IMG/VR virus record: IMGVR_UViG_3300019758_000009
Location: 15,800 to 79,799 of that record
Source: a virus
Reading direction: 5' to 3' (one strand)
Length of the DNA stretch: 64,000 bases
A program made the translations under genes and the position numbers. Below, piece by piece: positions 3,753-63,738 of this stretch (the stretch's first letter is position 1; each line of letters begins with the position of its first letter). The notes below the pieces were generated by a model. That model was not told the DNA's origin, searched no databases, and saw only the letters and a list, made by a program, of their open reading frames with translations.

Positions 3753-4304
3753 TTAGTTATCGTCTTCCTCTTCCTCTAAATTAATAGGTAGATTAGCTTT
3801 GGTAGCTAATGCTACGTGCGTTATCTTTGTAATGAGAGCAGAATAAAGGTCCGTTACTTTACCGTTCACAATTTTATATGTGAAAGTAACATTTTTCAAC
3901 TCATCCTCCAGCCTGATGATTGCATCTTTCTGCGATGATGCCGGCATGATGAATTTTTCCTTTACAACTTTTACCTTGTTTTTACCAGCTTCTTCCTCAA
4001 AAGCTACTGTTAACTCCCAGAACATATCCTCAAACTCGTAAGGAATATACTCCACGAATGAACCGGCCGTGTCCGGGGTATAGGCGATAACGTCGTTAAG
4101 ACTGACACCTGAAAATTGAACTCTTTCAATTTTATCGACAACTGTATTGTCTGTGTAGTTGGTTAGGGTGTTAAGGTAATCCTGAGCTACAACCTCAGCT
4201 TCCGTAAATGAAGAAACCTCCAATAATACAACGCGTTTTCTAACGCTTAACTCTCCTTCTGAGTTTTCAGCCGTGATACGGCCTGTGATTTTAAATAAAT
4301 TCAT
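3753..4304 (-). CDS. DUF4494-like protein (Bacteroidota family)
   Basis: N-terminal F.I...ENSEG...LLEVSSFTEAE and a second repeat FWELTVAFEEE..K.K..K...A.S match the family pattern as recalled. Confidence 0.6.
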   Translation of the reverse strand: MNLFKITGRITAENSEGELSVRKRVVLLEVSSFTEAEVVAQDYLNTLTNYTDNTVVDKIERVQFSGVSLNDVIAYTPDTAGSFVEYIPYEFEDMFWELTVAFEEEAGKNKVKVVKEKFIMPASSQKDAIIRLEDELKNVTFTYKIVNGKVTDLYSALITKITHVALATKANLPINLEEEEDDN

Positions 4305-4338
4305 ACGCTATAATTTTAAATTCGATGCAAAGGTAACA

Positions 4339-4725
4339 TTATTTTTTAATATACCAAAAAACATCTGGGTTTTCTTTAAATTTTCTTTCGTACCCATTGT
4401 TTTTCATGAGTTTTATAATCTCATCGGATTTCCATGTGTCTGTAATTTTCGAGAAGCCATCTATGGTGACATTCTGATTGCAGAGCAATTTAACCCTTTC
4501 CTTTTCTATAAGGAACTGAGCGCAGATCTCTTCAGCTTTGTTTTGCTCCAAGGTACATTTATACCTCCAGAAATGCTGAATGAAACCTCGTGGTGATTCG
4601 ATAGTGTGCTTACCATTCCATTCCCAGTAATCGTATTTTTCGCCGTGTGCCTTAGCAAAAGCAACAAGATCCGTGACTAAGAGCTTGTTTTTGCGTGCTA
4701 TTTCAGATATTAACTTTTGTGCCAT
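4339..4725 (-). CDS. Hypothetical protein
   Basis: 128 aa ORF in the co-oriented block, preceded by a TATATTTGCA promoter on the minus strand. Confidence 0.6.
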   Translation of the reverse strand: MAQKLISEIARKNKLLVTDLVAFAKAHGEKYDYWEWNGKHTIESPRGFIQHFWRYKCTLEQNKAEEICAQFLIEKERVKLLCNQNVTIDGFSKITDTWKSDEIIKLMKNNGYERKFKENPDVFWYIKK

Positions 4726-4804
4726 AATGCGCGTTTTAGATTCATAAGCGAGTAATTATTTATTAAGTGCAAATATAAAATAAATAATTGACATATGCAA
4801 GTTT

Positions 4805-5668
4805 TTACTTGACAAATTTAAATTCACCATCCCAGCTAGATAGCATCGGTAATTTCTCTGACTTGTATAAGCGGTAAATTTTCTCCATACCGATTTTAGT
4901 TAACGTTAGAACAGACTCTCTTCTGTAAAACCATTTACCTTGCCGCGTTTTAGCTACAGGTTCATCAGATTCAAGAAAATTAATCTGGAACCAATCTCTG
5001 GTGTAGCCAGTTGGTAAGTACCCAACCTGCTGGAAGAGTTGATCCCCAGACTCTACCCACACCTTTGAATGCATTTTAATCTTTTTCTTAGCAATCAAAT
5101 GAGACAATAACCCTTTCTGTTTAACGCCATTAAGCTGTAACACGGCTTGGGTGAGAGTTATTCCAGCTTTGAAGTTGTCTATCAAATCGTCTACGTGACT
5201 TTCTGATTTTGTCAACTTCTCTTGTAGCTGCCTATTTTCTTCGAGTTGCTTAGACATGAATAAAACTTCAGTTTCAGACAGACTGGGAAAGTATGTCTTT
5301 ATGAATTGAAGAGATGAGTTTTCCGCAACGAATCCACCAGTACGCCTGATTGTTGGTAGTACAAGATCAGTTATCCAATCTTGAAAGTCTTCTGCTGAAG
5401 GAGAATTAGACTTTATTGTTGCTCTATAAAGTTGCTTTTCTGATATGAAATCAGACTTATGTAAAGGTGGCGTTTCTGCCGCCTCGCTAACTTTCAGTGC
5501 TTTACGTAACTTATTCATATCTGGAAGCTTGTTCCCGCTCGTCGTAACTTTTGTCGGAGCCCACAATTTTAAAGCTACCTCACCAGCGTTAAACATTGGC
5601 TTTTCTGATGTTCCATACACGCTAAAATCACCAAACATACGATGTTTGAAATTCTTTAATTTTTCCAT
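4805..5668 (-). CDS. Bro-N domain antirepressor (KilAC-like C-terminus)
   Basis: FKHRMFG..., PMFNAGEVA, FISEKQLY, AEDFQDWITDLVLPTIRRTGGF, and C-terminal LTKIG. Confidence 0.85.
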   Translation of the reverse strand: MEKLKNFKHRMFGDFSVYGTSEKPMFNAGEVALKLWAPTKVTTSGNKLPDMNKLRKALKVSEAAETPPLHKSDFISEKQLYRATIKSNSPSAEDFQDWITDLVLPTIRRTGGFVAENSSLQFIKTYFPSLSETEVLFMSKQLEENRQLQEKLTKSESHVDDLIDNFKAGITLTQAVLQLNGVKQKGLLSHLIAKKKIKMHSKVWVESGDQLFQQVGYLPTGYTRDWFQINFLESDEPVAKTRQGKWFYRRESVLTLTKIGMEKIYRLYKSEKLPMLSSWDGEFKFVK

Positions 5669-5704
5669 AAGCTTTTATTTTAATTGTACATAATATAATT
5701 TATT

Positions 5705-5728
5705 CTCCCGCACGATATCGTGCGGGAG
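5705..5728. promoter_or_regulatory. Perfect 24-bp palindrome (operator or hairpin)
   Basis: CTCCCGCACGAT|ATCGTGCGGGAG lies 37 bp upstream of the antirepressor start. Confidence 0.5.
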
Positions 5729-5784
5729 CTAATGGACAGTGTGTTACGTTATTTATTTAAATTGCCCGTAAACATAACTGTTCA

Positions 5785-6543
5785 TCAAGAGGTTTTTATA
5801 ATTCGATCCCCTTCAAGCTTGAAGTCCCCAGCTTTCGGCTTTTGATATACTGGATAGTCGCCACGTTTACCTCCTAACATTTTGAATCTAGCCCAAATAT
5901 CATCCTCGTATTGCCATAAAGCATTTATAGCTGATAGATCTATGGAGATGCCATTATCATCTCGCATTTTGATGATATTAACAAACCCGCTATCTGGATT
6001 TGATAACTCGGACAGCCTCTTGTATGTTGCGCGTTTTGAGATACCTATCAACTCAAGATCCCCGGCTATTTTTGTAGAGGAATGGTATGTGCTGATTGTT
6101 TTTAGATCTCCATCGATGTAAAATATTTTCCATAACAGCGCTAGGAATAGCTTCTGGTAGACGGTAAGTACAGAGGTGGTAAGAATTACACTGGGGATTC
6201 GCTCAGCTTTTTCTTGTTTGCTTTCCAGTATATCTACTGTTATGTGTACTTTTTTACCGTCTTCGCTCATTTTTCTCATTACAGAAATAGCGTTCGCCTG
6301 CTCTAATTCAAGTAATGCTTTCTGGTAGGTGTTTGAGCTTATCGCGAACTTTTTCTTCATGAAGGTATAACTTGGGTCAAACCTCTTGTTTTCTGTTTCC
6401 AGAACCCCCTTTGTCCATCTGATGGCTAGGTACACAAATTTAGATGCTGGAGATATAGCGTCATTGCCTACGGTTCTTAATTTTCTAATTCTTTCTGGGA
6501 GTGGTGTCTCCCCTCCTTTAAACTCTATAAAGTTCTTCTTCAT
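5785..6543 (-). CDS. Tandem winged-helix protein, putative replication initiator
   Basis: Two HTH_36-like units (ISPASKFVYLAI..PS..ISSNTYQKALLELE and LTVYQKLFLALL..ISKRATYKRLSEL). Iteron-like repeats are adjacent. Confidence 0.55.
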   Translation of the reverse strand: MKKNFIEFKGGETPLPERIRKLRTVGNDAISPASKFVYLAIRWTKGVLETENKRFDPSYTFMKKKFAISSNTYQKALLELEQANAISVMRKMSEDGKKVHITVDILESKQEKAERIPSVILTTSVLTVYQKLFLALLWKIFYIDGDLKTISTYHSSTKIAGDLELIGISKRATYKRLSELSNPDSGFVNIIKMRDDNGISIDLSAINALWQYEDDIWARFKMLGGKRGDYPVYQKPKAGDFKLEGDRIIKTS

Positions 6544-6654
6544 AAGCTAGCTTGTTTGTTTATCGATTTTTACTTTATGGTGCAAATATATAAAAAAAAC
6601 TTTAAATAGCAAATAAAGCGCTCTTTATTTCTAATTTCACTGCATAAATAAACC

Positions 6655-6735
6655 ACTGCACAGAAAGAGTGGGTTTACTGCACAGAAAGAGTGGGTTTAC
6701 TGCACAGAAAGAGTGATCTACTGCACAGAAAGAGT
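6655..6735. repeat. Four iteron-like direct repeats (putative origin)
   Basis: Core ACTGCACAGAAAGAGT at 6655, 6677, 6699 and 6720 (spacing 22/22/21), followed by AAAAYCCAA-type repeats and AT-rich DNA. Confidence 0.85.
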
Positions 6736-6937
6736 ACAGTAAAAACCCAAGCGTAAAATCCAATAGTGAAAACCCAAGATAAAACCCTTTGTAAAAAAAA
6801 TGTTCGCTACGCTCACTGAATTTCGCTTCGCATTTTTAACACCTTTTTAAAAACACCCAAACAATTCCCCATACATCCAGATTAATTGCAATAACATTCT
6901 ACGCAATTGCAATTCGCGAATCAAGGATTGCAATTAA

Positions 6938-6964
6938 AACCAATAAAAGAACCTTCCAGCTATT
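6938..6964 (+). promoter_or_regulatory. Putative phage late promoter AACCA-N17-CTATT (first of several copies)
   Basis: The same motif and spacing occur at 10262, 15190, 15889, 58080 and 63685, with AACCT at 61875 and N16 variants at 10372 and 11079. Confidence 0.65.
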
Positions 6965-6999
6965 CTTAATTATGTAATCGATAATCAAAAAACAAGCAT

Positions 7000-8301
7000 A
7001 TGCCAGAAATAAAATCAAAAGACTTTTCTACCGCCGACAACCCAGTAGTCGGAATGGATGAGGCCACCCTGCATTCGGTGTACAAGACTTCAAAGAAAGT
7101 CATACAGGAGTATGTAAGGGAAATAGAACGACACAATAGATACAAAACGGCCAGAGCAGATTTTTCTACGAAGGTAATTATGGATAACCGCGCGGCCCTA
7201 ATCGATCTTTACGAGGCATGCATGCAGCAGGATGCCCATATGAAAAGCGTTATTGAGACATTAGAATCTCAGGTTCTCGGAGAGCGCTATATGATGGCCA
7301 GACAAACTCAAAGTGGCCAATATGTCAAAAATATTGACGAAACGAAGAAAATTCAAGGCACCCAGTTCATAAAAATAATTAAAGGCATCCTAGAGTCGAA
7401 GCTTTATGGTTATACGTTGATCGAGCTAGGAAGAGGCACTCATCCTATTACAGGGAAATTGACTGATGTAAAACTTGTTGAAAGGAGAAACGTGTTAGCG
7501 GACCAGCATTACGTTGTGAAACGCCAAGGTCAGTACTACCCAGGGTGGGATATAAATGAACCAGCTTATGTTGATGATTATGTTCTGGTAAAAAATGATG
7601 ATCTGGGTATGTTCTCAGCAACCACTCCGCTTATACTCGCGAAGAAATTCACATTCGCTAATTACGTTAGCTTTGCACAAACGTACGGCCAGCCAATAAT
7701 TCAAGGAAAAACAGCCGATGAGGGCACTACGGCCAGGCAACAATTGGCAAATGAAATTGCCACGGCCTCAGCTCAGCGGATAATTGTTACCGGCCTACAA
7801 GATGAGTTAAGTGTTCACGCTTTAGCTATGTCTAATTCAGAAAAGATATACACAAGTTTGGTGGATATGGTAAATGCTGAAGTTTCAAACTTAGTCTTAG
7901 GGTCAGAATCTATGGCTGGAGCTACACAGAGTTATGTTGGATCATCCAATGCCCATCAGGATATATTCAGAGATAGAATTGAGGTTTATCGTGAATACAT
8001 TGAGAACATAATGAATGAAGAGATAATTCCAAGACTTGTTAAGAAAGGCATGCTTGAGCCTGGCAATGAATTTAAATACGCCAACAAACTTGAGATGTCT
8101 AACGAGGACCGGATCAAACTTTACAACTTCATAACCGACAAATACAATGTTACTCCTGAAGAAATAGAAAAAGAATTTGGTATAGTCGTTGGTTCCCAGT
8201 TCAACGCGGCAATCGCTGCTGCTACTAACGAAAACCAAAAGCCAGCCACAACGAAATTGAAAAAAGTTGAGGCCAAGGTAAATTTTCTGACGAGGAAGTA
8301 G
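7000..8301 (+). CDS. Portal protein (Mu gp29/DUF935-like)
   Basis: R..LIDLYE...D.H..S; ILESKLYGYTLIEL; FAQTYGQP; NAEVS.LVLG; H...IMNEEIIPRL. It is the first gene of the head module. Confidence 0.85.
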   Translation: MPEIKSKDFSTADNPVVGMDEATLHSVYKTSKKVIQEYVREIERHNRYKTARADFSTKVIMDNRAALIDLYEACMQQDAHMKSVIETLESQVLGERYMMARQTQSGQYVKNIDETKKIQGTQFIKIIKGILESKLYGYTLIELGRGTHPITGKLTDVKLVERRNVLADQHYVVKRQGQYYPGWDINEPAYVDDYVLVKNDDLGMFSATTPLILAKKFTFANYVSFAQTYGQPIIQGKTADEGTTARQQLANEIATASAQRIIVTGLQDELSVHALAMSNSEKIYTSLVDMVNAEVSNLVLGSESMAGATQSYVGSSNAHQDIFRDRIEVYREYIENIMNEEIIPRLVKKGMLEPGNEFKYANKLEMSNEDRIKLYNFITDKYNVTPEEIEKEFGIVVGSQFNAAIAAATNENQKPATTKLKKVEAKVNFLTRK

Positions 8302-8320
8302 ACGGGTCTACTGCTTCCTC
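8280..8320 (+). other. Predicted -1 programmed ribosomal frameshift signal (portal to gpF-like)
   Basis: In-frame slippery heptamer A AAT TTT (8280-8286), a 5-nt spacer and a hairpin GAGGAAGTAGAC-GG-GTCTACTGCTTCCTC. The -1 frame is open into ORF 8361. Confidence 0.7.
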
Positions 8321-8360
8321 TATTGAATCGATCACAGCCAAGATCTCAGATTTTTACAAT

Positions 8361-9215
8361 GTGCAGGCTGAAGCATCGAAAAATGACCTTGATGGAATAA
8401 AGGACATCACAAACGACGAGTACGTTACCTTATTAGCTATTTTAAGAGGGTTTTTAGAGGATTTCTATAACAATCCATCTCTATATATGACCCATACAGA
8501 ATTAATGGAACAGAGGGCTGTATTCGCTCTTAATCATGCATTCAATGGTTACGGGTTATCTTTTGAGAGAGCTATGAACATCGTGAAGCTTGAAAATAAC
8601 GACGGTTTAACGGATATCCAAATCGAAGAACGGGACATGCTTATAGGCCTGATAGATAACATCATAAACTTCTCGGTTGCCGCTGAGCATCAAACGTTAA
8701 TGAGTATATCTGAAGACAGAGAAAAGTCTGTAGATATGGAAGAATTTATGATTACGGCCATCAATACATTTTCCAAATACAACAAGACTTACGCAGGTAT
8801 TGAGAATGAAGATATTTTCTTTGCATTAGGATTGGCAGCTGAATGGCTTAGGTTCGATGCTGAAACGATACTTCAATTCACAACTCAAGGCGATGAGAGA
8901 GTAAGGGATTCTCACAACGCCATAAATGGGCTAAGATACAGGAAGAAGGACTTCCCAGCTGCTTTGATACCCCCAATTGACCATGGGTGCAGGTGCTATT
9001 TGATTGATACAGGATCGACCGATGGTCGCAAGCTTACTAATAAGCCGAATGTATCAAAACTAATAGACGACGCTACAAACCCAGCCTTTAAATACAACGT
9101 GGCCACTTCTGGCCAAATGTTTGGTGAAGACCATCCGTATTTTGAGATTGGTAGCTCATATTTATCTATACTGGGAGCTACGGTGACCAAGATAAAAAGC
9201 AACTTAGGTTTATGA
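8361..9215 (+). CDS. Minor head protein, Mu gpF/SPP1 gp7-like (frame open from 8280)
   Basis: TQGDERVRDSH..NG...PPIDHGCRC and F..N...F...HPYF. Confidence 0.85.
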   Translation: MQAEASKNDLDGIKDITNDEYVTLLAILRGFLEDFYNNPSLYMTHTELMEQRAVFALNHAFNGYGLSFERAMNIVKLENNDGLTDIQIEERDMLIGLIDNIINFSVAAEHQTLMSISEDREKSVDMEEFMITAINTFSKYNKTYAGIENEDIFFALGLAAEWLRFDAETILQFTTQGDERVRDSHNAINGLRYRKKDFPAALIPPIDHGCRCYLIDTGSTDGRKLTNKPNVSKLIDDATNPAFKYNVATSGQMFGEDHPYFEIGSSYLSILGATVTKIKSNLGL

Positions 9216-9652
9216 GAATGTTAAAGCCTGACCAATTTCTGCGTGAGCTCCGGAATATGCAAAGTAAATTCGAAACAGAGCTATTCCGGGCCAGACAAGA
9301 AATCGGAACCTATGCCGTAAACCACTTCCAGTCATCCTTCAGTAAAGGAGGATTTGCTGGAGGAGGTAGTTCCTGGAGAGATAGAGAACATTCTTATTCT
9401 CATAAAATGCTAGACAAAACAGGAAGTATGAAAGAGGCTATTAATTTTAGAGCTTACAATACGTCTAACAATATTGTCGTATCAGCCACTAAGTCGTATG
9501 CAAGATTCCATAACGATCCGGATGGGTCATGGGCTAGAAATCAACACACAAGCAAGACCACACTGCAAAGGCAGTTTATAGGCAACTCAAGGCCTATGGA
9601 GCTGTGGATCAAAAGCAGATTGCAGGCGATGCTAACAAATACATTTAGATAA
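9212..9652 (+). CDS. Virion morphogenesis / neck protein (Mu gpG-like)
   Basis: F..GF...W...LDKTG.M...I; YARFHN; QRQFIGNS. Confidence 0.75.
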   Translation: MRMLKPDQFLRELRNMQSKFETELFRARQEIGTYAVNHFQSSFSKGGFAGGGSSWRDREHSYSHKMLDKTGSMKEAINFRAYNTSNNIVVSATKSYARFHNDPDGSWARNQHTSKTTLQRQFIGNSRPMELWIKSRLQAMLTNTFR

Positions 9653-10263
9653 TGAAGGAATTATATTTAGCGATAAAAGAAATCATCTTAAACATACCCG
9701 ATATATCGGACCCTACTCAAAAAATGTTTAAGACAGTAAAGATAGACAAAGGACAATTCCAGAGAGTGATCAGTAACGTGGAGAACGAAGAGATGGGCAT
9801 AATTTTCCCTGCTGTATTTATACATTTTGTAAATGTATCTTATCTTGTAAGTCAGAACCATATAGGGGAAGGCAGAGGTACAATGAGAGTTAGGTTTGTA
9901 CTAGATAGATTGAATGACCAGGAGGATGAATTCGAGACAGAAATCTTTGACTACGCAGCAATAATCAACGCTGCAATTCAGGATGCTAGGAACACCAACG
10001 CCCAACTAGGAGAAAGGTGTGACCTCCAATATTTCGACATGCCAGAATCAGTTTCCAGAGGACTACAACCATGCTGGCTTGATTACGGTGTTAATTTTAG
10101 AGATATGTCCGCGTTCACGTTCAGAGATTATATCAAAAAGACTATCGCAACACCAGCCCATACAAACTTCTCAGACATGACAGAGGAAAATAGAGACGGT
10201 AGAGTAGATGTGATAGTAGATATACCGACTCAATCAAAGATGAGAGACGAAATATCTGAATAA
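9652..10263 (+). CDS. Putative tail completion / neck protein
   Basis: MKELYLAIKE...FPAVFIHF, and its position after the gpG-like gene. Confidence 0.5.
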   Translation: MKELYLAIKEIILNIPDISDPTQKMFKTVKIDKGQFQRVISNVENEEMGIIFPAVFIHFVNVSYLVSQNHIGEGRGTMRVRFVLDRLNDQEDEFETEIFDYAAIINAAIQDARNTNAQLGERCDLQYFDMPESVSRGLQPCWLDYGVNFRDMSAFTFRDYIKKTIATPAHTNFSDMTEENRDGRVDVIVDIPTQSKMRDEISE

Positions 10264-10423
10264 CCATTTAGCCTATGGTGGCTCTATTATAAAGAAAGGG
10301 TTTTCCATACGCTATACAATAAATCCTAAAAATGCTCATCCATTGTCTTGGGTGGGCATTTTTACTTTGTAAACTATTTGCAATAAGCGTATCTATTATT
10401 AAATATAAAAACACTATAAATAT

Positions 10424-11749
10424 TTGCCGATGGATATAAAGAAATTCCAATTTATCGAAGGCAGTATCGCGACAGGTGAAGTAGCGACTATTAGATTTTT
10501 TGATTCTGTTGACGCATGGTCAGTAAGTTCGTTTGTTGACGAATTTCATTGGCTTGAGAATTATGTAAAACCTTCAAAAATTAAGATCCTAATCAATTCA
10601 GAGGGTGGGTCAGTTTTAAGAGGTATGGGGGCGTTCTCCGCTATCATAAACTCAGAGGTACCAACAGAAACAATTGTCGAGGGTCTTGCAGCATCTATGG
10701 GATCTGTCCTATTGGCAGCTGGTGGCGTAGCTAAAATGCGCGACTACGGTATTATTATGCTTCATAATCCATTTGGGGGTAATGACCCAAATGATCCAAT
10801 GGTCCTGGCTTTTAAAGACCAGTTGAAGGTAATCTATAAAAAACGATGGGGGTTCAGCGATGAACGTATCACTGAAATTATGGATGGCCCAGAGGATGCG
10901 GATGGGACATATATGAATGCTGAAGCTGCTGTCGAATATGGTATAATGCATCAGGACAATGTAATACAAACTCCACTACAGGATAAAGAGTCGATACTAG
11001 CTAAACTAGACACTTCAAACTCAACTGTTAATTACGGAGAGGTATTTTCATGCTCATGCCCTGTTAACTCAAACATTAAACCATCTCTTGATAATTTATC
11101 TAATATTAAGAGTGAAGGGAATACAGTTCCCAATGATAACAATAATAACCAACAAAATTCCAACACTATGGAAAACAATTTTGAAGCGGTAGTAGCTACT
11201 CTTGAATTAGCTAAGAATTCTACTCCAGCTGATGTTATGGCTAAAATTGTTGCTTTGAATAAAGTTGAAGCAAAAGTAGCAGCCTTAACTCAGGATAATG
11301 CAACCCTAACTCAGGATAATGCAGACCTTGTAATTGCTAAAACAGGATTACAAACAAGCCTAGAAACAGTAACTGGTCAGTTAACCGACAAAGAGACTGA
11401 GCTTACTTCGGTAAAAGCAGAATTGCAGGCTTTTCAAGATGAAAAGATCGCCAAAGTAAAAGCTGAGCAAGAGGCCGTTATTGACGACGCGATCAAAGCA
11501 GGTAAAATCAAAGCTGAATCCAAAGATCAGTGGGTATCTATGGCCAACATGAATTTCGACACTGTAAAATCTACCTTAGATTCTATGCCAGGTAAAACTG
11601 TTATTTCTCAAGAGATTGTAGCAGACGCTGGATCAACATTCGTAAGCGAGGGTGGGGTACAGCTAACAGACGAAGAGGTAAAAGCTAAAGAGCATGCCGA
11701 TAAAATCAAAGCAGTGGTTGGCGATATCACATACACAAAATTAGCTTAA
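10424..11749 (+). CDS. ClpP-type prohead protease fused to a C-terminal scaffold (start probably 10430)
   Basis: INSEGGSV, GLAASMGS (catalytic Ser), IMLHNP and YMNAEAAVEYG, then a coiled-coil tail with AIKAGKI. Confidence 0.88.
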   Translation: MPMDIKKFQFIEGSIATGEVATIRFFDSVDAWSVSSFVDEFHWLENYVKPSKIKILINSEGGSVLRGMGAFSAIINSEVPTETIVEGLAASMGSVLLAAGGVAKMRDYGIIMLHNPFGGNDPNDPMVLAFKDQLKVIYKKRWGFSDERITEIMDGPEDADGTYMNAEAAVEYGIMHQDNVIQTPLQDKESILAKLDTSNSTVNYGEVFSCSCPVNSNIKPSLDNLSNIKSEGNTVPNDNNNNQQNSNTMENNFEAVVATLELAKNSTPADVMAKIVALNKVEAKVAALTQDNATLTQDNADLVIAKTGLQTSLETVTGQLTDKETELTSVKAELQAFQDEKIAKVKAEQEAVIDDAIKAGKIKAESKDQWVSMANMNFDTVKSTLDSMPGKTVISQEIVADAGSTFVSEGGVQLTDEEVKAKEHADKIKAVVGDITYTKLA

Positions 11750-11768
11750 TCAATAAAAGAAACACGAT

Positions 11769-12779
11769 ATGGCAGTAAATTTTTCTACTAACACATACTC
11801 TGGTGAAGTTCTTGAGGATTTAATCTCTCACGCAGTACAAGGCAACGACACCATGAATGAAGGCTTGGTCCACGTTAAAAGTGGCATCCAGCACAAATAT
11901 GTCCTACCTACAATCAAATTAGGTGAAATCATCCAGGACAACGTAGCGACTCCGGTTAGTCCTACTAATTCCAAAGGTACATACACTTTAGGGGAACGTT
12001 ACCTAGAGCCTGAAGAGTTCATGGTATACCTTGAGTTTAACCCACGCGATTTCGAAGAGTACTGGAGACCTTTCCAGCCAACTGGAAACTTAGTGTTCCG
12101 CGAACTCGATCCTTTTGTACAAACTAAGATGTTACGCCTATTGATTGAGCGTAAAAACGAATACTTAGGAGAGTCAATCTGGATGTCAACAAAAGGTGGC
12201 GGCACAGCAGCTTACACTGGACCTGTTGGATTAAATGCATTAGGTACAGGAATGAACAAGTACCACCAAGGCTTCATGGCCCGTTTGTTAGATTCTATCA
12301 AATCTGGCGTAGGTACTGAAAAAGTAATTTCAGCAGGTACTACCGCTCTTGACACTGGAGCTAAAGTTGAAGCAGCTTTATACGCTATCTGGAAGCAATT
12401 TCCTAAGCAGTTACGCAAAAGCCGTAAGCTTAAGTTCGTTATGGACATGGAAATTTGGGATCTTTACGACGAATATTTGACAGCTAAGGATGTTAAATAC
12501 AAAGAGAACAAAGATGTTAATGAGCACAAATTCAAAGGTAAGCCAATTATCCCTATTAACGGAATGCCAGAACAAACTATTGTATTAGCTGAGCTAAGCA
12601 CTGGTGCTGATTCTAACTTCTGGATGGGTGTTGATTACGCTAATGATACTGAGGTTGTTAAAATCGACCAATTGCAATCAAATTCTGAGCTATACTTCTT
12701 CCAAATGAGAATGAAGATCGATGTTAACATCGTTAAGCCTGGCGAGATTGCAGTACACACCCCATGGGTACCAGTATAA
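11769..12779 (+). CDS. Major capsid protein
   Basis: 336 aa gene directly after the protease/scaffold and followed by a strong terminator. Confidence 0.75.
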   Translation: MAVNFSTNTYSGEVLEDLISHAVQGNDTMNEGLVHVKSGIQHKYVLPTIKLGEIIQDNVATPVSPTNSKGTYTLGERYLEPEEFMVYLEFNPRDFEEYWRPFQPTGNLVFRELDPFVQTKMLRLLIERKNEYLGESIWMSTKGGGTAAYTGPVGLNALGTGMNKYHQGFMARLLDSIKSGVGTEKVISAGTTALDTGAKVEAALYAIWKQFPKQLRKSRKLKFVMDMEIWDLYDEYLTAKDVKYKENKDVNEHKFKGKPIIPINGMPEQTIVLAELSTGADSNFWMGVDYANDTEVVKIDQLQSNSELYFFQMRMKIDVNIVKPGEIAVHTPWVPV

Positions 12780-15179: not shown

Positions 15180-15254
15180 GTACCTTTTAAACCATATTTG
15201 TTCCGCTGTACCTATTATTAAGAAAAGGATTTATAATAACTTATACTTATTGTT

Positions 15255-15647
15255 ATGGCAGAATTTAATGAAGACCAAGAGCAGGAGCTATTGATTAGCG
15301 CCTCATTGCAAAAAGACATCAAAGCTAAAGTAGAAGAGCTACAAAAGGTAAAGAAAGTAAAAAAGGTATTCCCTATTGCCGTAGAAGGTGACGAGGATGA
15401 CGAGAAAGACCTTTACGTCGCGTACTTTAAAGAGCCTACGTTCGCAGATTTCTCGAAGTTCACAGCTATGGGAAAATCAAACGAAACTCAGGCCTTACGC
15501 CAATTAGGCCGTGACTGCTTGCTGGATGGCGACAAAGAATTACTTGATGACGACTCATTATTCCTATTTGGATTAATGCCTCAGTTATCATCTATTGTTA
15601 GATTCAGAAGAAGTCGAATCGTAAATTTATCAAAAGCTGGGAAGTAA
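15255..15647 (+). CDS. Tail assembly chaperone (G)
   Basis: Lies between tube and tape measure. It has YFKEP, DCLLDGD and a slippery site at the 3' end. Confidence 0.8.
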   Translation: MAEFNEDQEQELLISASLQKDIKAKVEELQKVKKVKKVFPIAVEGDEDDEKDLYVAYFKEPTFADFSKFTAMGKSNETQALRQLGRDCLLDGDKELLDDDSLFLFGLMPQLSSIVRFRRSRIVNLSKAGK

Positions 15648-15814
15648 AAAAGTGGCAGACACTTCGACAATATGAAGCGTATGTCAGGCATTTTTTTCCC
15701 GGCGTTGACCTCTCCAATATAAGCGATGAAGAATTCGCAAAACTGGCCCAAGACGCTGTATGGTTAAAAGCTGATTTGAACCCATTTGGTAAAATGGAAG
15801 GAGCTACCCAATAA
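15623..15814 (+). CDS. Tail assembly chaperone frameshift extension (GT), -1 frame
   Basis: A AAT TTA at 15623-15629. The -1 frame reads KFIKSWEVKKWQTLRQYEAYVRHFFPGVDLSNISDEEFAKLAQDAVWLKADLNPFGKMEGATQ* and has no usable start codon of its own. Confidence 0.8.
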   Translation, partial: KFIKSWEVKKWQTLRQYEAYVRHFFPGVDLSNISDEEFAKLAQDAVWLKADLNPFGKMEGATQ

Positions 15815-15872: not shown

Positions 15873-15956
15873 GTATATATACGCAGACAACCAATGTCTT
15901 TTGTAATATCCTATTATTAAGTGTATACACAATATTCATTTAAATGAAATAAGCGC

Positions 15957-18887
15957 ATGAATTATGGAGTTAGCTATAAAATAGACATAAATGGCAGCGC
16001 TGCATCACGAGAGCTTACTAGCTTCTTAAAAACAGCAAACACCGTCATCCCAAAGGTGAATGGTAAGTTTGACAGTATGAATAAGAAGATTAGAAAGACA
16101 ATTGAAAATGTAGAAAAGCTGCAAAGAGAGCTAAAGGAACTTAGCAAAATAAAGATTGATCTGAACTCAAAGTCGGCAATTAGAGACATCAGGGAAATCA
16201 AAAGAGAGCTTGATAAGATTAGAAATAAAAGAGTAAGAGTAACCATTGATCAGAGAAATCAATCAGGGGGTAGATCTACTAGCTCAAGACCAAGAGGGGT
16301 ATCAGCTTCCAGGCCAACAGCTATGGGAAGAGCATTCTCTCCTACATCAATGATGTCCGCTGGAGGGATACCGTTCGCTACTACCATAGGAGCAGGTCTT
16401 ATCGGTATGGGATTACGTTCTGTAATATCAGAAGCTTCTCAGTTTCAACATACAATGGTAAGTGTTAACGCTATACTAAGAACAACAGATAAAGACGCCG
16501 CCACCTTTAACCAGAGATTTGAATCTATGTCCTCTAATATGAGGCAGTTAGGTGTAGATACAAAATTCTCAGCAGTGGAAATCGGCAACGCTTCCAGGTT
16601 CTTATCTATGGCAGGCATGGGCATCGCTCAAATCGATGGATCGATGAAGGCTATCACAAATATGGCGGCCATTGGAGACACCGACTTAGGGGCCATGGCT
16701 GATGTTGTGACAAACATAATGACCGGCTACGGTATAGGCCATGAAAGAATAAATGACGCCAGTGACTCTATGACCTCTATTACGTCACGAGCAAATGTAA
16801 ATATCATGGAAATGGGAGAGTCCATGAAGTACGCATCTAACTATATGCGTATGGCAGGTATAGATTTCAGTGAAGGAGCTGCAGCTGTAGGTGTTTTAGG
16901 TAATGCTGGTATGAAAGGAACTTTGGCTGGTACAGCACTTAGAGCTATGATAATCAGGTTAATAGCGCCAACCAAGAAAGCTCAGAAAGTAATCGACAGA
17001 TTAGGTGTATCCTTCACCAGAATGGTACCAGACGGCAAAGGAGGCATGAAAGAGGCAGTTAAACCGCTACATACAATATTTTCAGAGTTAAAAGGTGCTG
17101 GGGCATCTATGGAAGATCTGAAGTTAATATTTGACAAAATCGGTGGTGGTGGAGCTATGGCGCTTGTCAATAATCTAGACAAACTAAAAAGTCTTACCAC
17201 ATCCGCAAGCTTTGCTGGTGGAGAAGCTGATTTTCTAGCAGAAGAAAAAATGAAGACGGTAGTAGGTTTGAGTCAACAGATAAGATCTAAATTTTTGGAC
17301 TTAGGTCAAACGCTATTTGATAAATTATCACCTAAGCTGTCGCAAATGATGACAGACCTTCTTGGATGGCTAAAAGGAGATGATGCCAGTAAAATGTTCG
17401 ACTCTACAACAGAGGGGATAAGTGACTTGCTTGATGGACTCAAGAAAACCGCCATATTCGTAAAAGGTAATTGGCATTGGTTAAAATATGTTCTAGGCGG
17501 CATGGCCGTTAAAAGTATAGCTGGAAGAGTTATTGGCATGGGATCGTCTATGGTCGGAGGACTAAGGGGAACTGGCAGTATGCTGGGGTCTGTAGGCAGA
17601 TTCGCTTTAGGTAGATCAGGAGCTGCTGCAGGAGCAGGTATAGCTGGTAGAGGCTTAGGAATGCTAGGTGGATTAAGTTCAGCAGGAGGAGCAGCAGCGA
17701 CAAGTGTTGGGGCCATGGCAGCGTCTTTAACTGCCTTAGTTGCAGGAGGAGCTATTGTTGCAGGAGTAGGAGCTATAGCTTATGCTGTATGGGATGTACA
17801 TAAAGCTTCGCAGGCAGTACAAGAGTCAAGGTCTGCAGTAGCTGATTGGTCTATGAAAACAGTAGGGGCCAACACGGAGTCCTTAGACATCATCCAGCAA
17901 AAACTAAACGGTATATATTACACCCAGAATAAAATATCTGGAGAGAAAAAAACTACCACTAAATCGTTCGGACAGACCAAATGGGACCAGTCAATCAAAG
18001 GTTGGAGAAAAACCAATAAGTGGTCATGGTTACCATGGGCATCTGGGGATGAAAGGAACAAAGATTTAACTGGCACTGTTAAGGATTTAGCTATATCCGG
18101 CAAAAGGGGCGAGCAGATCCGCAATATCTGGAAAGACGCTATGACAGGTGGCCCTGGAGGTATCAACGCTAACATCCAGAGAATAATGTCACTGAGAGGA
18201 CAATATGCCTCTATGAGTCAAGGAAAAACTCCATTATCAAGTATGATGGAAACAGGTATATATGGCGGGGGAAAGGGATACAACCAAGTCCTCCAGTCTA
18301 GAGATGCCTATCAGTCATTAATTGGTTTTGCGGACACAATGATCGATCAACTACAAAGCATGAGCAATGCTCTAGGCTTTGAAGGGAAAGGTCAAAATAT
18401 ACATGTCTTAAAGTCACTAGACGCCTTACTTGGAGGCAAGATGAACTTAGGTGGCTTTATAGAGGATATGAAAACCGGCAGATATACAACTGGCGAGGAC
18501 ATAAAAAACAGACTTGGAGTCAACAAACTAAGTGTTTCTGGTATCAAAACGACTCTGGCCAGCATGGGTATAGGGTCAGGTATGATAGACACGATAATAC
18601 AAAAATCAGGCCTGCTACCATCCGTAAATACAAACATAAAGGGTGAGTCAGATATCAAAAAACTTACCAACGAAAGGGGCGTAGATGACCTGGATGGAGG
18701 CATAGGAGGTTTAAGTGGTACCGGAAGAACGGGTAACAAAACCGGCAAGATGCTTATAGTAAATATAGACAGCTTGATGAATGTTGAAAATGCCAACTTC
18801 GCGAACGAAGAAGACATGGACTCTATGAAGGAGAAAATGGCTCAAGCATTAATGGATGTAGTAAAAGATTTTGAAATAGGTTACTAA
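15957..18887 (+). CDS. Tape measure protein (TP901-type core)
   Basis: TKFSAVEI, LSMAG, MGESMKYA, LGNAGMKGTLAGTALR and a Gly/Ala-rich hydrophobic segment. Confidence 0.92.
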   Translation: MNYGVSYKIDINGSAASRELTSFLKTANTVIPKVNGKFDSMNKKIRKTIENVEKLQRELKELSKIKIDLNSKSAIRDIREIKRELDKIRNKRVRVTIDQRNQSGGRSTSSRPRGVSASRPTAMGRAFSPTSMMSAGGIPFATTIGAGLIGMGLRSVISEASQFQHTMVSVNAILRTTDKDAATFNQRFESMSSNMRQLGVDTKFSAVEIGNASRFLSMAGMGIAQIDGSMKAITNMAAIGDTDLGAMADVVTNIMTGYGIGHERINDASDSMTSITSRANVNIMEMGESMKYASNYMRMAGIDFSEGAAAVGVLGNAGMKGTLAGTALRAMIIRLIAPTKKAQKVIDRLGVSFTRMVPDGKGGMKEAVKPLHTIFSELKGAGASMEDLKLIFDKIGGGGAMALVNNLDKLKSLTTSASFAGGEADFLAEEKMKTVVGLSQQIRSKFLDLGQTLFDKLSPKLSQMMTDLLGWLKGDDASKMFDSTTEGISDLLDGLKKTAIFVKGNWHWLKYVLGGMAVKSIAGRVIGMGSSMVGGLRGTGSMLGSVGRFALGRSGAAAGAGIAGRGLGMLGGLSSAGGAAATSVGAMAASLTALVAGGAIVAGVGAIAYAVWDVHKASQAVQESRSAVADWSMKTVGANTESLDIIQQKLNGIYYTQNKISGEKKTTTKSFGQTKWDQSIKGWRKTNKWSWLPWASGDERNKDLTGTVKDLAISGKRGEQIRNIWKDAMTGGPGGINANIQRIMSLRGQYASMSQGKTPLSSMMETGIYGGGKGYNQVLQSRDAYQSLIGFADTMIDQLQSMSNALGFEGKGQNIHVLKSLDALLGGKMNLGGFIEDMKTGRYTTGEDIKNRLGVNKLSVSGIKTTLASMGIGSGMIDTIIQKSGLLPSVNTNIKGESDIKKLTNERGVDDLDGGIGGLSGTGRTGNKTGKMLIVNIDSLMNVENANFANEEDMDSMKEKMAQALMDVVKDFEIGY

Positions 18888-49415: not shown

Positions 49416-49594
49416 TAGATGTAACTAAAAGACAACCATTTTGCAATAACTGTATTCATGCAAAAGAGATATCCTCAACAAGGAGAGGGGGTACTTCGTA
49501 TAAATGCAGTAAAATAGATTATAAGTTCAAGAGCTATTGGTTAAAGACAAGAGCTTCTGAGTGTAAACTTTTTAAAGACAAAAGAGATGAGTGA
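49412..49594 (+). CDS. Small Cys-rich protein
   Basis: CNNCIH...C...C, with ATGA-type overlaps to its neighbours. Confidence 0.5.
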   Translation: MIDVTKRQPFCNNCIHAKEISSTRRGGTSYKCSKIDYKFKSYWLKTRASECKLFKDKRDE

Positions 49595-51353
49595 TACTAT
49601 ACTAAGCTTTAAGGAAAAATTCGAAGCGTGGATGCTCGACAATATGATGGCTTACAAATTCGTGGAGGATGATATAATTGACATCCCTGAGTTTGGAAAG
49701 CTTTATTTTTTTGACAGCGAAGCGCAAGAAGGTGTATTTTCAGATAAAAACAAAAAAGGCGAAATGAATCTCGAACTACCTGTACCGGCAGGAGAGTTGA
49801 TTGACGATAATGTGTTTTACGCCATACTTAAATGGGGTAATGGGTTTTATTATACAGACCTGAGAGAAGATGTCACTCTTCAGCCCTTAAAGTATCTCGG
49901 TAAATGCGTTATCCCTAAGCCTAAGATTGACTATGTAAACCTCGGTATACATAGTCCATTTGAGCTTCTTGAAGGGTCATTTTTACCTAAAGAGTGGATA
50001 AAAAAAGCCAAATTCTTCGGCCACAACACCATTGGTATTTGCGATAAAAACACCATGGGAGGGACACTACCGCTTCAAAAGGCATGCAAGAAGGAGGATA
50101 TGGAATTTGTGTTTGGCTACTCCCTGGAAGTTAGGCTTCCAGAGCATGAAGAGCTGATGTTTGAGGGAAAGGTTTATTGCTCCACTGATGAGGGGTGGAG
50201 TAATATGCTGAGGATTCAAAAGGCCGTGATGGTTGATAACCACGAGGATCCCCATATATCTCTGGATGAATTACTGGACAGAGGTAAAGGAAATGTGTTT
50301 GTTTTTGATAAGTTATCATCAAAAGTAATAGATGACCACACTATAGAAAAGATCGAAAGAGCGTTCGATAAAATCTTCTACCAGCTTGACTTAACAGAGT
50401 ACAAGGCTGATAGGTTTGATAAAGAAGTTCTTGAGTCTATTGATGTTTATTTGAAAAAATGGAAAGATCAGATCCCCCCAGTTCTCATTTGTGATAACTA
50501 TTATCTTGACCACTCAGACGCTAAGAACAAGATAATATTAAACAAGATAGCCTCTGGGACAGCCAAAAAACAAAGTGACCAGCAGTACTATAAGCATATA
50601 TCTGAACATATATCCGTTATTAGGGATTTATTCAATGTTCATAATGGTGAAAATGCTGAACATATTGAGAATTATATGCTAGATTTGATCCACGAAAGTG
50701 CAAAAAACACATTTGTTATAGCCGATTTAGCTAAGGCTGAGATTGACACAGGAAGCATATACATGCCTGAGTATGAAATGAAACCCAGCGAAGTCACTAA
50801 GTATGGGGATAAGCACAGTATGTTTTTATCCTTATTAGACGAAGGTTTTGATAAGTTGGTGCCAAATGGCGTGGGTGATAAGTACACAGAACAGCTTGAC
50901 AGGGAGATATATATCATAGAATCAACTAACAATATTGACTACTTCTTAGTTACTTGGGATACCGTAAACTGGGCCAGGGAAAACGGCATTCAAATCGGTT
51001 CAGCCAGGGGGTCTGCTGGAGGGAGTTTAGTTTCATATTTGCTAGGTATCACAACTATTGACCCTATTACTTATGATCTGATATTTGAGCGATTCCTAAC
51101 TCCGGAGCGATGTGGTTTGCAGCCTCAGGATGTAACCATTGTAGGTGACGACGTAGAGGTTCTTAAAGGTGAAGACTATATATCCATAGAGACCGAAGAA
51201 GGTGTGCTGAATGTCCTCCCAGAGTCCGAGCTAATGATAAAGAGAGGAGATGAAACGATAGAAGTAAGGGCAGACGAGCTGGAAGAAGAGGATGAGATTG
51301 TTATCGACTCAAGAGATCAATTGTGGGAAATTAATAAGGTTATCATAAAATAA
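49587..51353 (+). CDS. dnaE: DNA polymerase III alpha, N-terminal subunit (PHP plus start of palm) ending in an intein-N-like segment
   Basis: HSPFELLEGS, YFLV.WD, GSARGSAGGSLVSYLLGIT.IDP and FERFLTPER. Confidence 0.92.
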   Translation: MSDTILSFKEKFEAWMLDNMMAYKFVEDDIIDIPEFGKLYFFDSEAQEGVFSDKNKKGEMNLELPVPAGELIDDNVFYAILKWGNGFYYTDLREDVTLQPLKYLGKCVIPKPKIDYVNLGIHSPFELLEGSFLPKEWIKKAKFFGHNTIGICDKNTMGGTLPLQKACKKEDMEFVFGYSLEVRLPEHEELMFEGKVYCSTDEGWSNMLRIQKAVMVDNHEDPHISLDELLDRGKGNVFVFDKLSSKVIDDHTIEKIERAFDKIFYQLDLTEYKADRFDKEVLESIDVYLKKWKDQIPPVLICDNYYLDHSDAKNKIILNKIASGTAKKQSDQQYYKHISEHISVIRDLFNVHNGENAEHIENYMLDLIHESAKNTFVIADLAKAEIDTGSIYMPEYEMKPSEVTKYGDKHSMFLSLLDEGFDKLVPNGVGDKYTEQLDREIYIIESTNNIDYFLVTWDTVNWARENGIQIGSARGSAGGSLVSYLLGITTIDPITYDLIFERFLTPERCGLQPQDVTIVGDDVEVLKGEDYISIETEEGVLNVLPESELMIKRGDETIEVRADELEEEDEIVIDSRDQLWEINKVIIK

Positions 51354-51360
51354 CAGTATC

Positions 51361-53562
51361 ATGAAAATAAAAACAGTAAAGAGAATTATAGCAAAAAAGC
51401 CTGTTGTTGTGACTGATATGTTAATAGACGAGGGGTTCCGGCCTGGAGGTCGAGTATCCCTTCCTGATATCGATATTGATTACGCATCAGATGGCAGATT
51501 AAAAGTCAAATCATACATAGAAGAAAGATACAACAGTGATGGCACTCAAAATGTCTTTTCTGCTGGAAACTTAACAACCTTGAAGATGAAAGCGGCCCTA
51601 AAAGATGTATGTAAGGTACATCGGGTACCGTATGCTTTAGCTAACTACACTACTGCAATGATCAAGGATGACGGTATGACATGGACAGGCTTATTTAAAG
51701 AGTGTATGGTTAACAAAAAAATGAAAAAGTTTGTTAATGACTACCCTAAGGCTATCGAGGATATTAGGTCCATCATGAACCAGCCAAGATCCACGTCTAT
51801 CCACGCTTCAGCTGTTATCGTAACACCTAAATTTAAAGATGGAAAACGAGTAGAATGTTTTGATTATCTGCCTTTAAGAATTATGGATGGATTGCTTGTT
51901 AGCGAGTTTGATGGTTATTCAGTGGAAGAGATTGGACTTCTAAAGAACGATGTATTGGCCACTAAAGAGCTAATGAAGATCAGAAATACTATTAATCTCG
52001 TAAATGAAAACTATCCATACAAAATCAAGGAAATGATGAGCCATGTAGAAGGAGAGGACATCCTAACTATGGAAGCTATACATACCAAGATGACAAACGA
52101 TAAAGGGGCGTTTTCGTTATTTAGTAACGGCTACACCCAGAACATCTTTCAGTTTTCAGGTAGAGGTATGACGAAATTTGTATCCGATATGGGGCTTGAT
52201 TCTATTGATGACATAACAGCAGCAAATGCCTTGTATAGGCCAGCAACTATTGATATAAAGGCCCACGAGGACTACATCAGGTATAAAAGAGGCGAAGCTA
52301 CACCTACCTATAACTGGGGGACGTATGATAGCACTTCAGAGACTCACGGTATTATGGCCTACCAAGAGCAGATGATGAGGATATCTCAAACAGTAGGGGG
52401 CTTTTCATTATCTAAAGCTGATGTATTAAGAAAGGCTATCGGTAAGAAGAATACCGAAATCATGGCATCACTAAAGCGGGATTTTATAGATGGAGCTGTA
52501 GCCAACCAGTGCCCTGTGGCAGAAGCTAAAGATATATGGCGCAAAATTGAATTGGCTGGAAGGTACTCTTTTAACAAGTCTCACGCAGCAGCGTACGGCC
52601 TAATCGCCTATGACGGGGCATGGCTGAAATCGAATTTCCCAACAGCATTTTATACTGTCGCCCTGCAATTTTGCAAGGATGAAGATATAAAGGTGCTTAT
52701 GGGAGAAATGAGTGAAATATCAAACTGTCAAATTGTGCCTCCAGACGTGAACGTTTCCGGTCTTGAGTTTTTCACAAACTATGACACGGATGAGATATTC
52801 TGGTCATTGTCTAGAATTAAGTTTGTCGGAGCTAAAGCCGTCAACTCCATAATTGAAGACAGAGTTGAGTTCGGTGCATTTACTAGCATTGAAGACTTTT
52901 ATATTCGAATGCAAGCTAGATCAGTAAGCGATAAGGCCGCCTCAATAAAAAACGGCGATAGGTACACAAATCCAGTGAACTCTAGGACTATAAAGAATAT
53001 GATACTAACTGGATGCTTTGATAATATCGAAAACACCAAAGAAGTTAGTGATAGGTTTTTTATTTTAGAGAAATTCTACACCTTAATAGGGGGAGAGATT
53101 GACACTGAAGACTTTCCAGGTGAAATGATAGACAAGCATTATTTCTGGTCTATGCTACAGGTTGAGCTCTCTGGATTAGGGTCTGTGGATTACCGAAGGA
53201 TATTCAACAACTCTAAATCGAGATTGGAAATGAAAAAGACCCCATATCTAAGCCTTAAGGATGCCCTAGATATGGAAAACGAAGGCAGGAGATGCGCTGT
53301 TTGTGCTACAGTTGTAGATATTTCTGAGAAGTCAGGAAAAACAAAGAAAGGAGACCCCTATTTATTTGGCAAGGTACAACTGCAGCAAAATAATGAAACT
53401 ATCGAATGCACTATTTGGAATGATACATGGATACAGAAAAAGCCATTACTAGCAGATGCTAAAGGTAAAGTGGTGGTAATAAATGGTAATTTGAAATATA
53501 ATTCATTCTCTAACGGCAACGCAATGACATGCGGGTCAAGTGTTGTTATTGAGATAATCTAA
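51361..53562 (+). CDS. dnaE: DNA polymerase III alpha, C-terminal subunit beginning with an intein-C-like segment
   Basis: SLPDIDID, SIHASAV, GLLKND.L, FQF, ALYRP, YQEQ.M, YSFNKSHA and a C-terminal OB fold. Confidence 0.93.
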   Translation: MKIKTVKRIIAKKPVVVTDMLIDEGFRPGGRVSLPDIDIDYASDGRLKVKSYIEERYNSDGTQNVFSAGNLTTLKMKAALKDVCKVHRVPYALANYTTAMIKDDGMTWTGLFKECMVNKKMKKFVNDYPKAIEDIRSIMNQPRSTSIHASAVIVTPKFKDGKRVECFDYLPLRIMDGLLVSEFDGYSVEEIGLLKNDVLATKELMKIRNTINLVNENYPYKIKEMMSHVEGEDILTMEAIHTKMTNDKGAFSLFSNGYTQNIFQFSGRGMTKFVSDMGLDSIDDITAANALYRPATIDIKAHEDYIRYKRGEATPTYNWGTYDSTSETHGIMAYQEQMMRISQTVGGFSLSKADVLRKAIGKKNTEIMASLKRDFIDGAVANQCPVAEAKDIWRKIELAGRYSFNKSHAAAYGLIAYDGAWLKSNFPTAFYTVALQFCKDEDIKVLMGEMSEISNCQIVPPDVNVSGLEFFTNYDTDEIFWSLSRIKFVGAKAVNSIIEDRVEFGAFTSIEDFYIRMQARSVSDKAASIKNGDRYTNPVNSRTIKNMILTGCFDNIENTKEVSDRFFILEKFYTLIGGEIDTEDFPGEMIDKHYFWSMLQVELSGLGSVDYRRIFNNSKSRLEMKKTPYLSLKDALDMENEGRRCAVCATVVDISEKSGKTKKGDPYLFGKVQLQQNNETIECTIWNDTWIQKKPLLADAKGKVVVINGNLKYNSFSNGNAMTCGSSVVIEII

Positions 53563-58078: not shown

Positions 58079-58148
58079 TAACCATATGCGGTAAGTTACA
58101 TCTATTTTTAAATATGAAGAGACTAATGTAAACCACAAAACACACCGC

Positions 58149-63580: not shown

Positions 63581-63738
63581 CGAGGCCGCTATGTATGATT
63601 GCGGTAACGACTCCAGATATCCGTACTACTCTGGAAAGCAAAGGCTACATCTCTTAAATGAGGTGTGGCCTTTGTTGGTTTTCTAACCAAATAGTTACCT
63701 CATGTTCTATTTTCAGGTGTAACTAAAATAATAACTAT

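Follow-up and report, generated by a model that had tools for sequence, protein, structure and literature searches.

The window considered here, a stretch of 64,000 nucleotides (nt), is part of IMG/VR virus record IMGVR_UViG_3300019758_000009 (positions 15,800 to 79,799 of a record of 79.8 kb with an estimated completeness of 72%), and DNA nearly identical to it is found in microbial mat metagenomes. Its head module encodes a Mu-type portal protein and, adjoining it downstream, a head protein of the MuF (SPP1 gp7-like) type, and the comparison of related junctions makes it very likely that a real and functional programmed -1 frameshift at the 3' end of the portal gene gives rise to a portal-MuF fusion protein. 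A wider proposition, which can be regarded as probable with more reserve, is that MuF no longer has a start of its own in a large clade of Bacteroidota phages and prophages, where it would exist solely as a C-terminal extension that frameshifting adds to some portal subunits, the portal ring then being mixed and its composition set by slippage. A fusion of the portal to a gpF-like head protein had been predicted in a sequence-only reading of the same DNA; the conservation described below supports it, while the part of that prediction according to which a fixed minority of portal subunits carries the extension is still something that we infer.

The portal assignment is firm, with a match to Portal_Mu that covers profile positions 2-336 of 336 (E = 2.9e-41, 142.4 bits against a cut-off of 23.9). 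The zero-frame 3' end of the gene reads GTA AAT TTT CTG ACG AGG AAG TAG, the TAG occupying positions 8299-8301, and the in-frame heptamer before this stop, as well as the 5-nt spacer and the strong hairpin behind it, lie exactly where the sequence-only reading had located them (Table 1), with the portal stop codon sitting within the 5' arm of the hairpin. The 42 nt 3' of the spacer have a folding energy of -14.9 kcal/mol; the remaining 42-nt windows of the portal and MuF genes average -5.0 +/- 2.8, and none of these equals the hairpin one, which is the most stable of all. In related portal genes, in-frame heptamers of the form X_XXY_YYZ are rare (54 of 14,261 other codon positions). A TGA at 8268-8270 closes the -1 frame, which is then open over 8271-9215, with its stop at 9213-9215, so that the predicted fusion comprises 429 portal residues plus 309 further residues, 738 amino acids (aa) altogether; the earlier estimate of about 740 aa and the junction peptide suggested with it thus prove correct, as do the 27 stop-free codons leading into the gpF-like open reading frame (ORF) and the status of GTG 8361 as its sole start candidate. 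An X_XXY_YYZ heptamer, a stable RNA structure 5 nt downstream, inside the expected range of 5-9 nt, and an open -1 frame with a conserved product, which together make up a -1 frameshift cassette, are all present, and the site in the window is more than a chance occurrence. A single-ORF portal-MuF fusion gene is ruled out here, since a stop at 8299-8301 ends the portal frame and MuF is read in the -1 frame.

Table 1. Positions in the window of the features discussed in the text.
Feature	Position	Strand	Remarks
Portal gene, Mu-type, 433 aa	7000-8301	+	Pfam PF06074 Portal_Mu; PHROG 113 portal
Slippery heptamer A_AAT_TTT, portal frame	8280-8286	+	Asn in P site, Phe in A site
5-nt spacer, heptamer to hairpin	8287-8291	+	same length in aligned relatives
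Hairpin, proposed stimulatory	8292-8320	+	8292-8301 pairs with 8311-8320; 10 bp, 9-nt loop
Linker, -1 frame after shift	8286-8399	+	length varies among relatives; low model confidence
GTG, only canonical start candidate before folded MuF domain	8361-8363	+	not conserved
Folded MuF / gp7-like head protein domain, -1 frame	8400-9215	+	PF04233; model; invariant motifs
203-aa ORF	9652-10263		between gpG-like gene and protease-scaffold gene
Tail assembly chaperone gene	15255-15647		just upstream of tape measure gene (15957-18887)

Relatives were gathered as 80 viral contigs, via the portal, and 46 loci of bacterial assemblies, via a MuF alignment, the latter mostly from Bacteroidales with cultured strains among them; 123 related loci could be analysed and reduce to 72 distinct junctions from viral contigs, cultured phages and Bacteroidales genomes. 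The nearest phage records are the cultured Bacteroides phage BS-TP1 and an unannotated gut phage scaffold, whose MuF proteins are only 33% identical to that of the window, and in both, the portal frame contains the heptamer, at L001 2932-2938 in BS-TP1, the spacer is 5 nt long, the hairpin has another sequence and MuF lies in the -1 frame. Across the survey MuF occupies the -1 frame in 61 of the 72 junctions, and its frame always opens 5' of the portal stop. Conservation of heptamer, hairpin and frame offset in homologs, the check that had been proposed together with the prediction, was carried out on this set with a positive outcome: A_AAT_TTT stands 19-25 nt before the portal stop in 58 of the 61 -1 junctions, the remaining three (G_AAT_TTT, A_TCT_TTT and G_TCT_TTT) retain the A-site TTT and the hairpin, and a stable hairpin is present in 61 of 61. 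In contrast, A_AAT_TTT occurs in none of the 11 junctions in which MuF lies in another frame, the hairpin is likewise absent from them except in one locus (L026), and in ten of the 11 MuF has its own ATG just 5' of the conserved block. The association of the heptamer with the -1 layout gives a Fisher p of 1e-10, uncorrected for relatedness, and a fixed 48-nt window that spans the hairpin folds with a mean energy of -18.4 kcal/mol in -1 junctions versus -5.4 kcal/mol in the other-frame ones. The exceptional locus (L026, positions 4230-5090) keeps a strong hairpin next to a degenerate heptamer (G_GAT_TTT) and has MuF broken over two frames; it is probably a decaying copy or an assembly error. 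No uninterrupted portal-MuF ORF exists in any of the 123 related loci (0/123), and a word-based protein search, which is weak evidence, returned no longer, fused relatives of MuF.

On a quick, unrooted portal tree in which several forks stay unresolved, the lineages with an own ATG appear scattered among the -1 lineages. The well-supported branches of this tree would force at least two changes of layout between the shift and own-ATG forms, and frameshift and own ATG look like interchangeable solutions.

The heptamer and the hairpin are conserved beyond what the portal protein requires, and the stem shows covariation. Counts of codon choice, of start codons and of hairpin rank per locus refer to the 32 distinct -1 junctions of the viral and cultured-phage set. 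In these, the heptamer Asn is encoded by AAT in 31 of 31 cases, compared with 41% of Asn codons elsewhere in the same portal genes, the heptamer Phe by TTT in 32 of 32 (39% elsewhere), and the codon before the heptamer Asn ends in A in 31 of 32, spread over seven different codons, where A otherwise accounts for 19% of third positions. Own-ATG lineages spell the same Asn-Phe pair AAC TTC, which is frequent, or else AAC TTT or AAT TTC. The arms of the hairpin vary from lineage to lineage and yet stay complementary, as illustrated by GAGGAAG/CTTCCTC in the window and by GGGAGCGGAA/TTCCGCTCCC and GGGGAATGAAG/CTTCATTCCC elsewhere. Compensatory changes are seen at eight of the ten pairs, 89% of the hairpin cells are paired, as against 41-63% when the partner column is slid, and none of 500 shuffles reached the covariation score. 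In addition, in 31 of 32 loci the hairpin ranks among the 5% of windows that fold most stably.

A further line of evidence concerns the way in which the MuF frame can be entered, and it bears directly on the rival explanation that survives best, improbable as we judge it: that MuF is translated independently, from GTG 8361 in the window and from non-canonical or scattered starts in relatives, with the heptamer and hairpin being incidental or serving mRNA stability or the pacing of translation at the portal stop. This GTG comes 27 codons behind the heptamer, still 5' of the folded domain, the linker contains at least one ATG, GTG or TTG in 13 of the 32 distinct -1 junctions, and starts of this kind are hard to exclude from sequence in Bacteroidota, which initiate translation without strong Shine-Dalgarno sites. 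However, where such codons are present they stand at non-conserved positions (codons 7, 13, 15, 16, 19, 26 and 27), and in 19 of the 32 junctions no ATG, GTG or TTG is found between the last upstream -1-frame stop and the conserved block that begins with a Glu-Tyr pair. The nearest relatives of the window (L004 and L005) have no equivalent of GTG 8361, their first ATG, GTG or TTG being at codon 55, and in the commonest junction type (L002/L051) the first start codon is codon 83, deep within the conserved domain. Because a -1-frame stop stands 0-3 codons 5' of the heptamer in the window, BS-TP1, L004, L029 and L046, the MuF frame of these five loci can be entered only at or after the heptamer. 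Among close relatives the variable columns of the linker number 15, 9 and 36 at codon positions 1, 2 and 3 of the -1 frame (chi-square p = 4e-5), which shows that a linker without a start evolves as coding sequence in that frame. Independent initiation leaves unexplained this coding-like evolution 5' of any start, as well as the fixed synonymous choices at the heptamer and the absence of heptamer and hairpin from the own-ATG lineages. Given that GTG 8361 is not conserved and that many relatives are start-less before the MuF block, MuF is in this clade probably made only as a fusion, and not as a free protein accompanied by a minority of fusion. The BS-TP1 paper annotates MuF from an ATG 38 codons past the portal stop. 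As a separate observation, the -1 frame over the 3' part of GC-rich portal genes can lack ATG, GTG and TTG for up to 192 codons (L040, 3723-4298; L002, 2737-2904), and these stretches seem to be a by-product of codon composition, the frame being rich in arginine and glycine.

Termination followed by reinitiation is less probable still. In this scheme ribosomes would stop at the portal TAG within the hairpin and restart nearby in the MuF frame, and the fixed position of the stop codon relative to the hairpin in all relatives fits it; many relatives, however, have no start codon for 55-83 codons past the portal stop, and conserved slippery codons would not be required. The chance that the layout is an artefact, be it a fortuitous heptamer or an assembly indel that splits one continuous portal-MuF gene, is practically negligible: homopolymer runs can yield indel errors and single-ORF portal-MuF fusions do exist elsewhere (available text of PMC7302621), but the run is merely A3T4, 61 distinct junctions show the frame offset together with a zero-frame stop close by and come from many independent assemblies, among them two phage records and complete genomes of cultured strains, and the junction of the window is identical and gap-free in a contig assembled independently from another sample.

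Several points weigh against a programmed frameshift or narrow the evidence for it. Lineages that lack the signal still conserve Asn-Phe at the portal C-terminus, and this amino-acid constraint explains part of the heptamer conservation, although neither the choice of codons nor the A in front of them follows from it. Since the 5' arm of the hairpin codes in two frames, its freedom to vary is limited. A shuffle test of a wider 71-nt stretch is not significant alone (z = -1.25) and was superseded by the comparison with all 42-nt windows of the same genes. Moreover, the surveyed loci share ancestry, so that their counts are not counts of independent events, and in the window itself GTG 8361 would allow some free MuF.

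Aligned in the -1 frame from the heptamer onwards, the relatives show a variable linker and then a conserved block that starts near the Glu-Tyr pair, 20-46 codons downstream. In an AlphaFold model of the sequence starting at 8280, built with 20 homologs, the predicted local distance difference test (pLDDT) is 44-59 over the initial 40 residues; from residue 41 onwards it is mostly 85-96, with three 10-residue blocks at 75-78, a confidence profile that fits a flexible tether followed by a folded domain. The match to PF04233 (Phage_Mu_F) is marginal, at 31.0 bits versus a cut-off of 29.6, and is confined to the C-terminal portion of the profile (residues 200-245 of P0002, window 8868-9005). MuF also matches PHROG minor head protein families, its BS-TP1 homolog carries the annotation Mu F-like domain protein, and the motifs D-E-R-V-R..H and C-R-C are invariant. 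With the good MuF model as query, Foldseek retrieved nothing from the PDB at E <= 0.001, and hence no structural hint at the function of MuF; sequence searches of the PDB, run with the MuF profile and with the portal, yielded no usable match.

Taken together, a programmed frameshift at the portal-MuF junction would work as follows. Most ribosomes would read through the heptamer and terminate four codons past the Phe codon, giving the free 433-aa portal protein. A fraction would pause on A_AAU_UUU on account of the hairpin 5 nt downstream, which resists unwinding, and the paired tRNAs (tRNA-Asn and tRNA-Phe) would then slip in tandem by one base back, from AAU_UUU to AAA_UUU. Translation in the -1 frame would continue through a flexible linker of about 40 residues into the MuF domain, yielding the 738-aa protein. 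Its portal part would join the dodecameric ring, the fusion thereby bringing a few MuF copies into the procapsid at a ratio set by the efficiency of the shift. The C-terminus of portal proteins faces the capsid interior. Since portal and MuF form one gene in some Microbacterium phages, compared below, the fusion may be supposed to place a few MuF domains, in a number determined by that efficiency, at the inner face of the ring. The model of the portal monomer of the window was poor (mean pLDDT 54.9, below 50 at the C-terminus) and was not used. That the shift occurs, how efficient it is, that MuF is inside the head and what becomes of the fusion later are all points that we infer.

The genomic surroundings are those of a Mu-like head module (7000-12779), which comprises, in order, the portal gene, MuF, a gpG-like virion morphogenesis gene, an unassigned 203-aa ORF, a protease-scaffold gene (a ClpP-type protease fused to a Mu I-like scaffold) and a putative capsid gene that matches a PHROG virion structural protein and has no Pfam family; sheath, tube, chaperone, tape measure and baseplate genes follow. 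The tail assembly chaperone gene contains an in-frame GTA AAT TTA at 15621-15629 (heptamer A_AAT_TTA, 15623-15629) with a -1 frame open over 15602-15814, and looks like a standard frameshift site of the G/GT type, in the textbook place for one, with almost the same heptamer as the portal; the GTA AAT TTW context that the sequence-only reading had described as common to the two sites is indeed there. A candidate late promoter is formed by the motif AACCA-N17-CTATT, which has six exact copies on the + strand (6938-6964, 10262-10288, 15190-15216, 15889-15915, 58080-58106 and 63685-63711) that precede, among others, the portal gene (36 nt before its ATG) and the protease, chaperone and tape measure genes; counted with one mismatch the motif occurs 11 times versus 6.5 +/- 2.7, which is not above chance. 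No copy lies between 7000 and 10262 and no terminator-like site was found at the portal-MuF junction, and this spacing of the motif together with the absence of a terminator fits, as soft evidence, transcription of portal and MuF on one mRNA.

Some further observations were made along the way. Over 4805-6999 no terminase gene adjoins the portal gene; upstream of it, running leftward, are a BRO-N anti-repressor-like gene (4805-5668) and a helix-turn-helix, replication-initiator-like gene (5785-6543), the latter separated from the portal gene by a 456-nt intergenic region, and the same break in gene order upstream of the portal is seen in BS-TP1. Two ORFs only 7 nt apart at 49587-53562 both match DNA polymerases, the first (49587-51353) a PHROG DNA polymerase and the second (51361-53562) Pfam DNA polymerase III alpha domains, and look like a split DnaE. 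Among the bacterial loci, nearly identical portal-MuF junctions occur in assemblies of five species, Bacteroides propionicigenes, Alistipes sp., Phocaeicola coprophilus, Bacteroides gallinarum and Bacteroides ndongoniae (L121-L125); four of the five are identical in the stretch shown and one differs by a single base, among viral contigs, the L051 type is identical to four of them and the L002 type matches the fifth, and this looks like one very widely shared prophage. Two loci with related portals (L047 and L064, about 4240-4290) end the portal gene with an in-frame A_AAA_AAC; behind it, in the -1 frame, follows a gene that starts at an ATG of its own 5 nt past the portal stop and is not similar to MuF, which here is replaced by a different downstream module. 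Finally, a distant portal of 27% identity in Winogradskyella phage Peternella_1 (L003, 2715-2850) ends with two in-frame A_AAA_AAA runs; its MuF-like gene is in the -1 frame, open from 2719 and annotated from 2845, there is no clear hairpin, and an analogous shift on a different slippery site may be at work.

Portal vertices are usually treated as rings of 12 identical subunits to which minor head proteins are recruited by binding. If the proposed frameshift holds, the portal ring would be a mixed oligomer and the shift the first recoding event described for a portal gene. It would constitute a novel means by which phages control the number and position of an internal head or ejection protein, and a second widespread class of phage frameshifts beside that of the tail chaperones. 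There is also a practical side, as gene callers give MuF arbitrary or truncated starts, and knowledge of the signal corrects many annotations of gut Bacteroidales phages and prophages. The presence of the identical cassette in cultured phages and lysogens makes the proposal directly testable; the lysogens include Bacteroides oleiciplenus YIT 12058, Phocaeicola coprophilus DSM 18228 and Alistipes sp. i18-0019-D1.

In its logic, the proposed system resembles retroviral Gag-Pol, in which a -1 frameshift driven by a heptamer and a downstream structure lets an assembly protein carry a minor cargo domain. Both combine a heptamer with a downstream structure, and in both the cargo ratio would be fixed by frameshift efficiency; Gag-Pol differs in that it involves eukaryotic ribosomes, unrelated proteins and an enzymatic cargo. 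The closest parallel within phages is the G/GT -1 frameshift of the tail chaperones, known from lambda and most long-tailed phages (Xu, Hendrix and Duda 2004, as cited in the available text of PMC6316719 and PMC7302621). As proposed for the portal, a structural gene there yields both a short protein and one with a C-terminal extension, in constant proportion, through a conserved -1 slip at an X_XXY_YYZ heptamer close to its 3' end. Unlike G/GT, however, the pair consists of portal and MuF and not of two chaperone ORFs upstream of the tape measure gene, the extension would amount to an entire folded protein (about 270 residues) which other phages encode in a gene of its own, and the stimulatory hairpin is strongly conserved. 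An assignment of the portal site itself to the G/GT class was considered and rejected, because the site does not lie between the tail tube and tape measure genes.

Recoding of virion genes that leads to two forms of a protein, both built into the particle, is likewise known from the major head protein of Lactobacillus phage A2, produced with a -1 frameshift (Garcia et al. 2004, as cited in the available text of PMC10885494), and from gp17.1/gp17.1* of SPP1 (available text of PMC6316719). The portal case is similar in this respect, but in A2 and gp17.1* a capsid or tail tube protein is extended by a decoration-like domain, and a portal is not joined to a head protein. SPP1 also offers the counterpart for MuF itself, since gp7 reaches the procapsid in a few copies by binding the portal protein gp6 (available text of PMC6316719). 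There, gp6 and gp7 are translated separately and their link is non-covalent, whereas the link proposed here would be covalent and set by recoding.

With regard to the fusion, single-gene portal-MuF fusions have been described in Microbacterium phages of subclusters EA3, EA5 and EA8 and of cluster EB (available text of PMC7302621). As in the fusion predicted here, portal and MuF-like domains are found in one polypeptide and in the same order; in contrast, the Microbacterium genes are one ORF and would put MuF on every portal subunit, whereas in the window a stop and a change of frame intervene and the fusion would be made only by shifted ribosomes. The literature searched, outside which most subscription journals lie, yielded no description of a frameshift located in a portal gene or joining portal and MuF, and the accessible text of the BS-TP1 paper makes no mention of one, in keeping with the earlier remark that no characterised example was known. 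Thus, the mechanism of recoding and portal-MuF fusion proteins are each known, whereas no case that combines them is.

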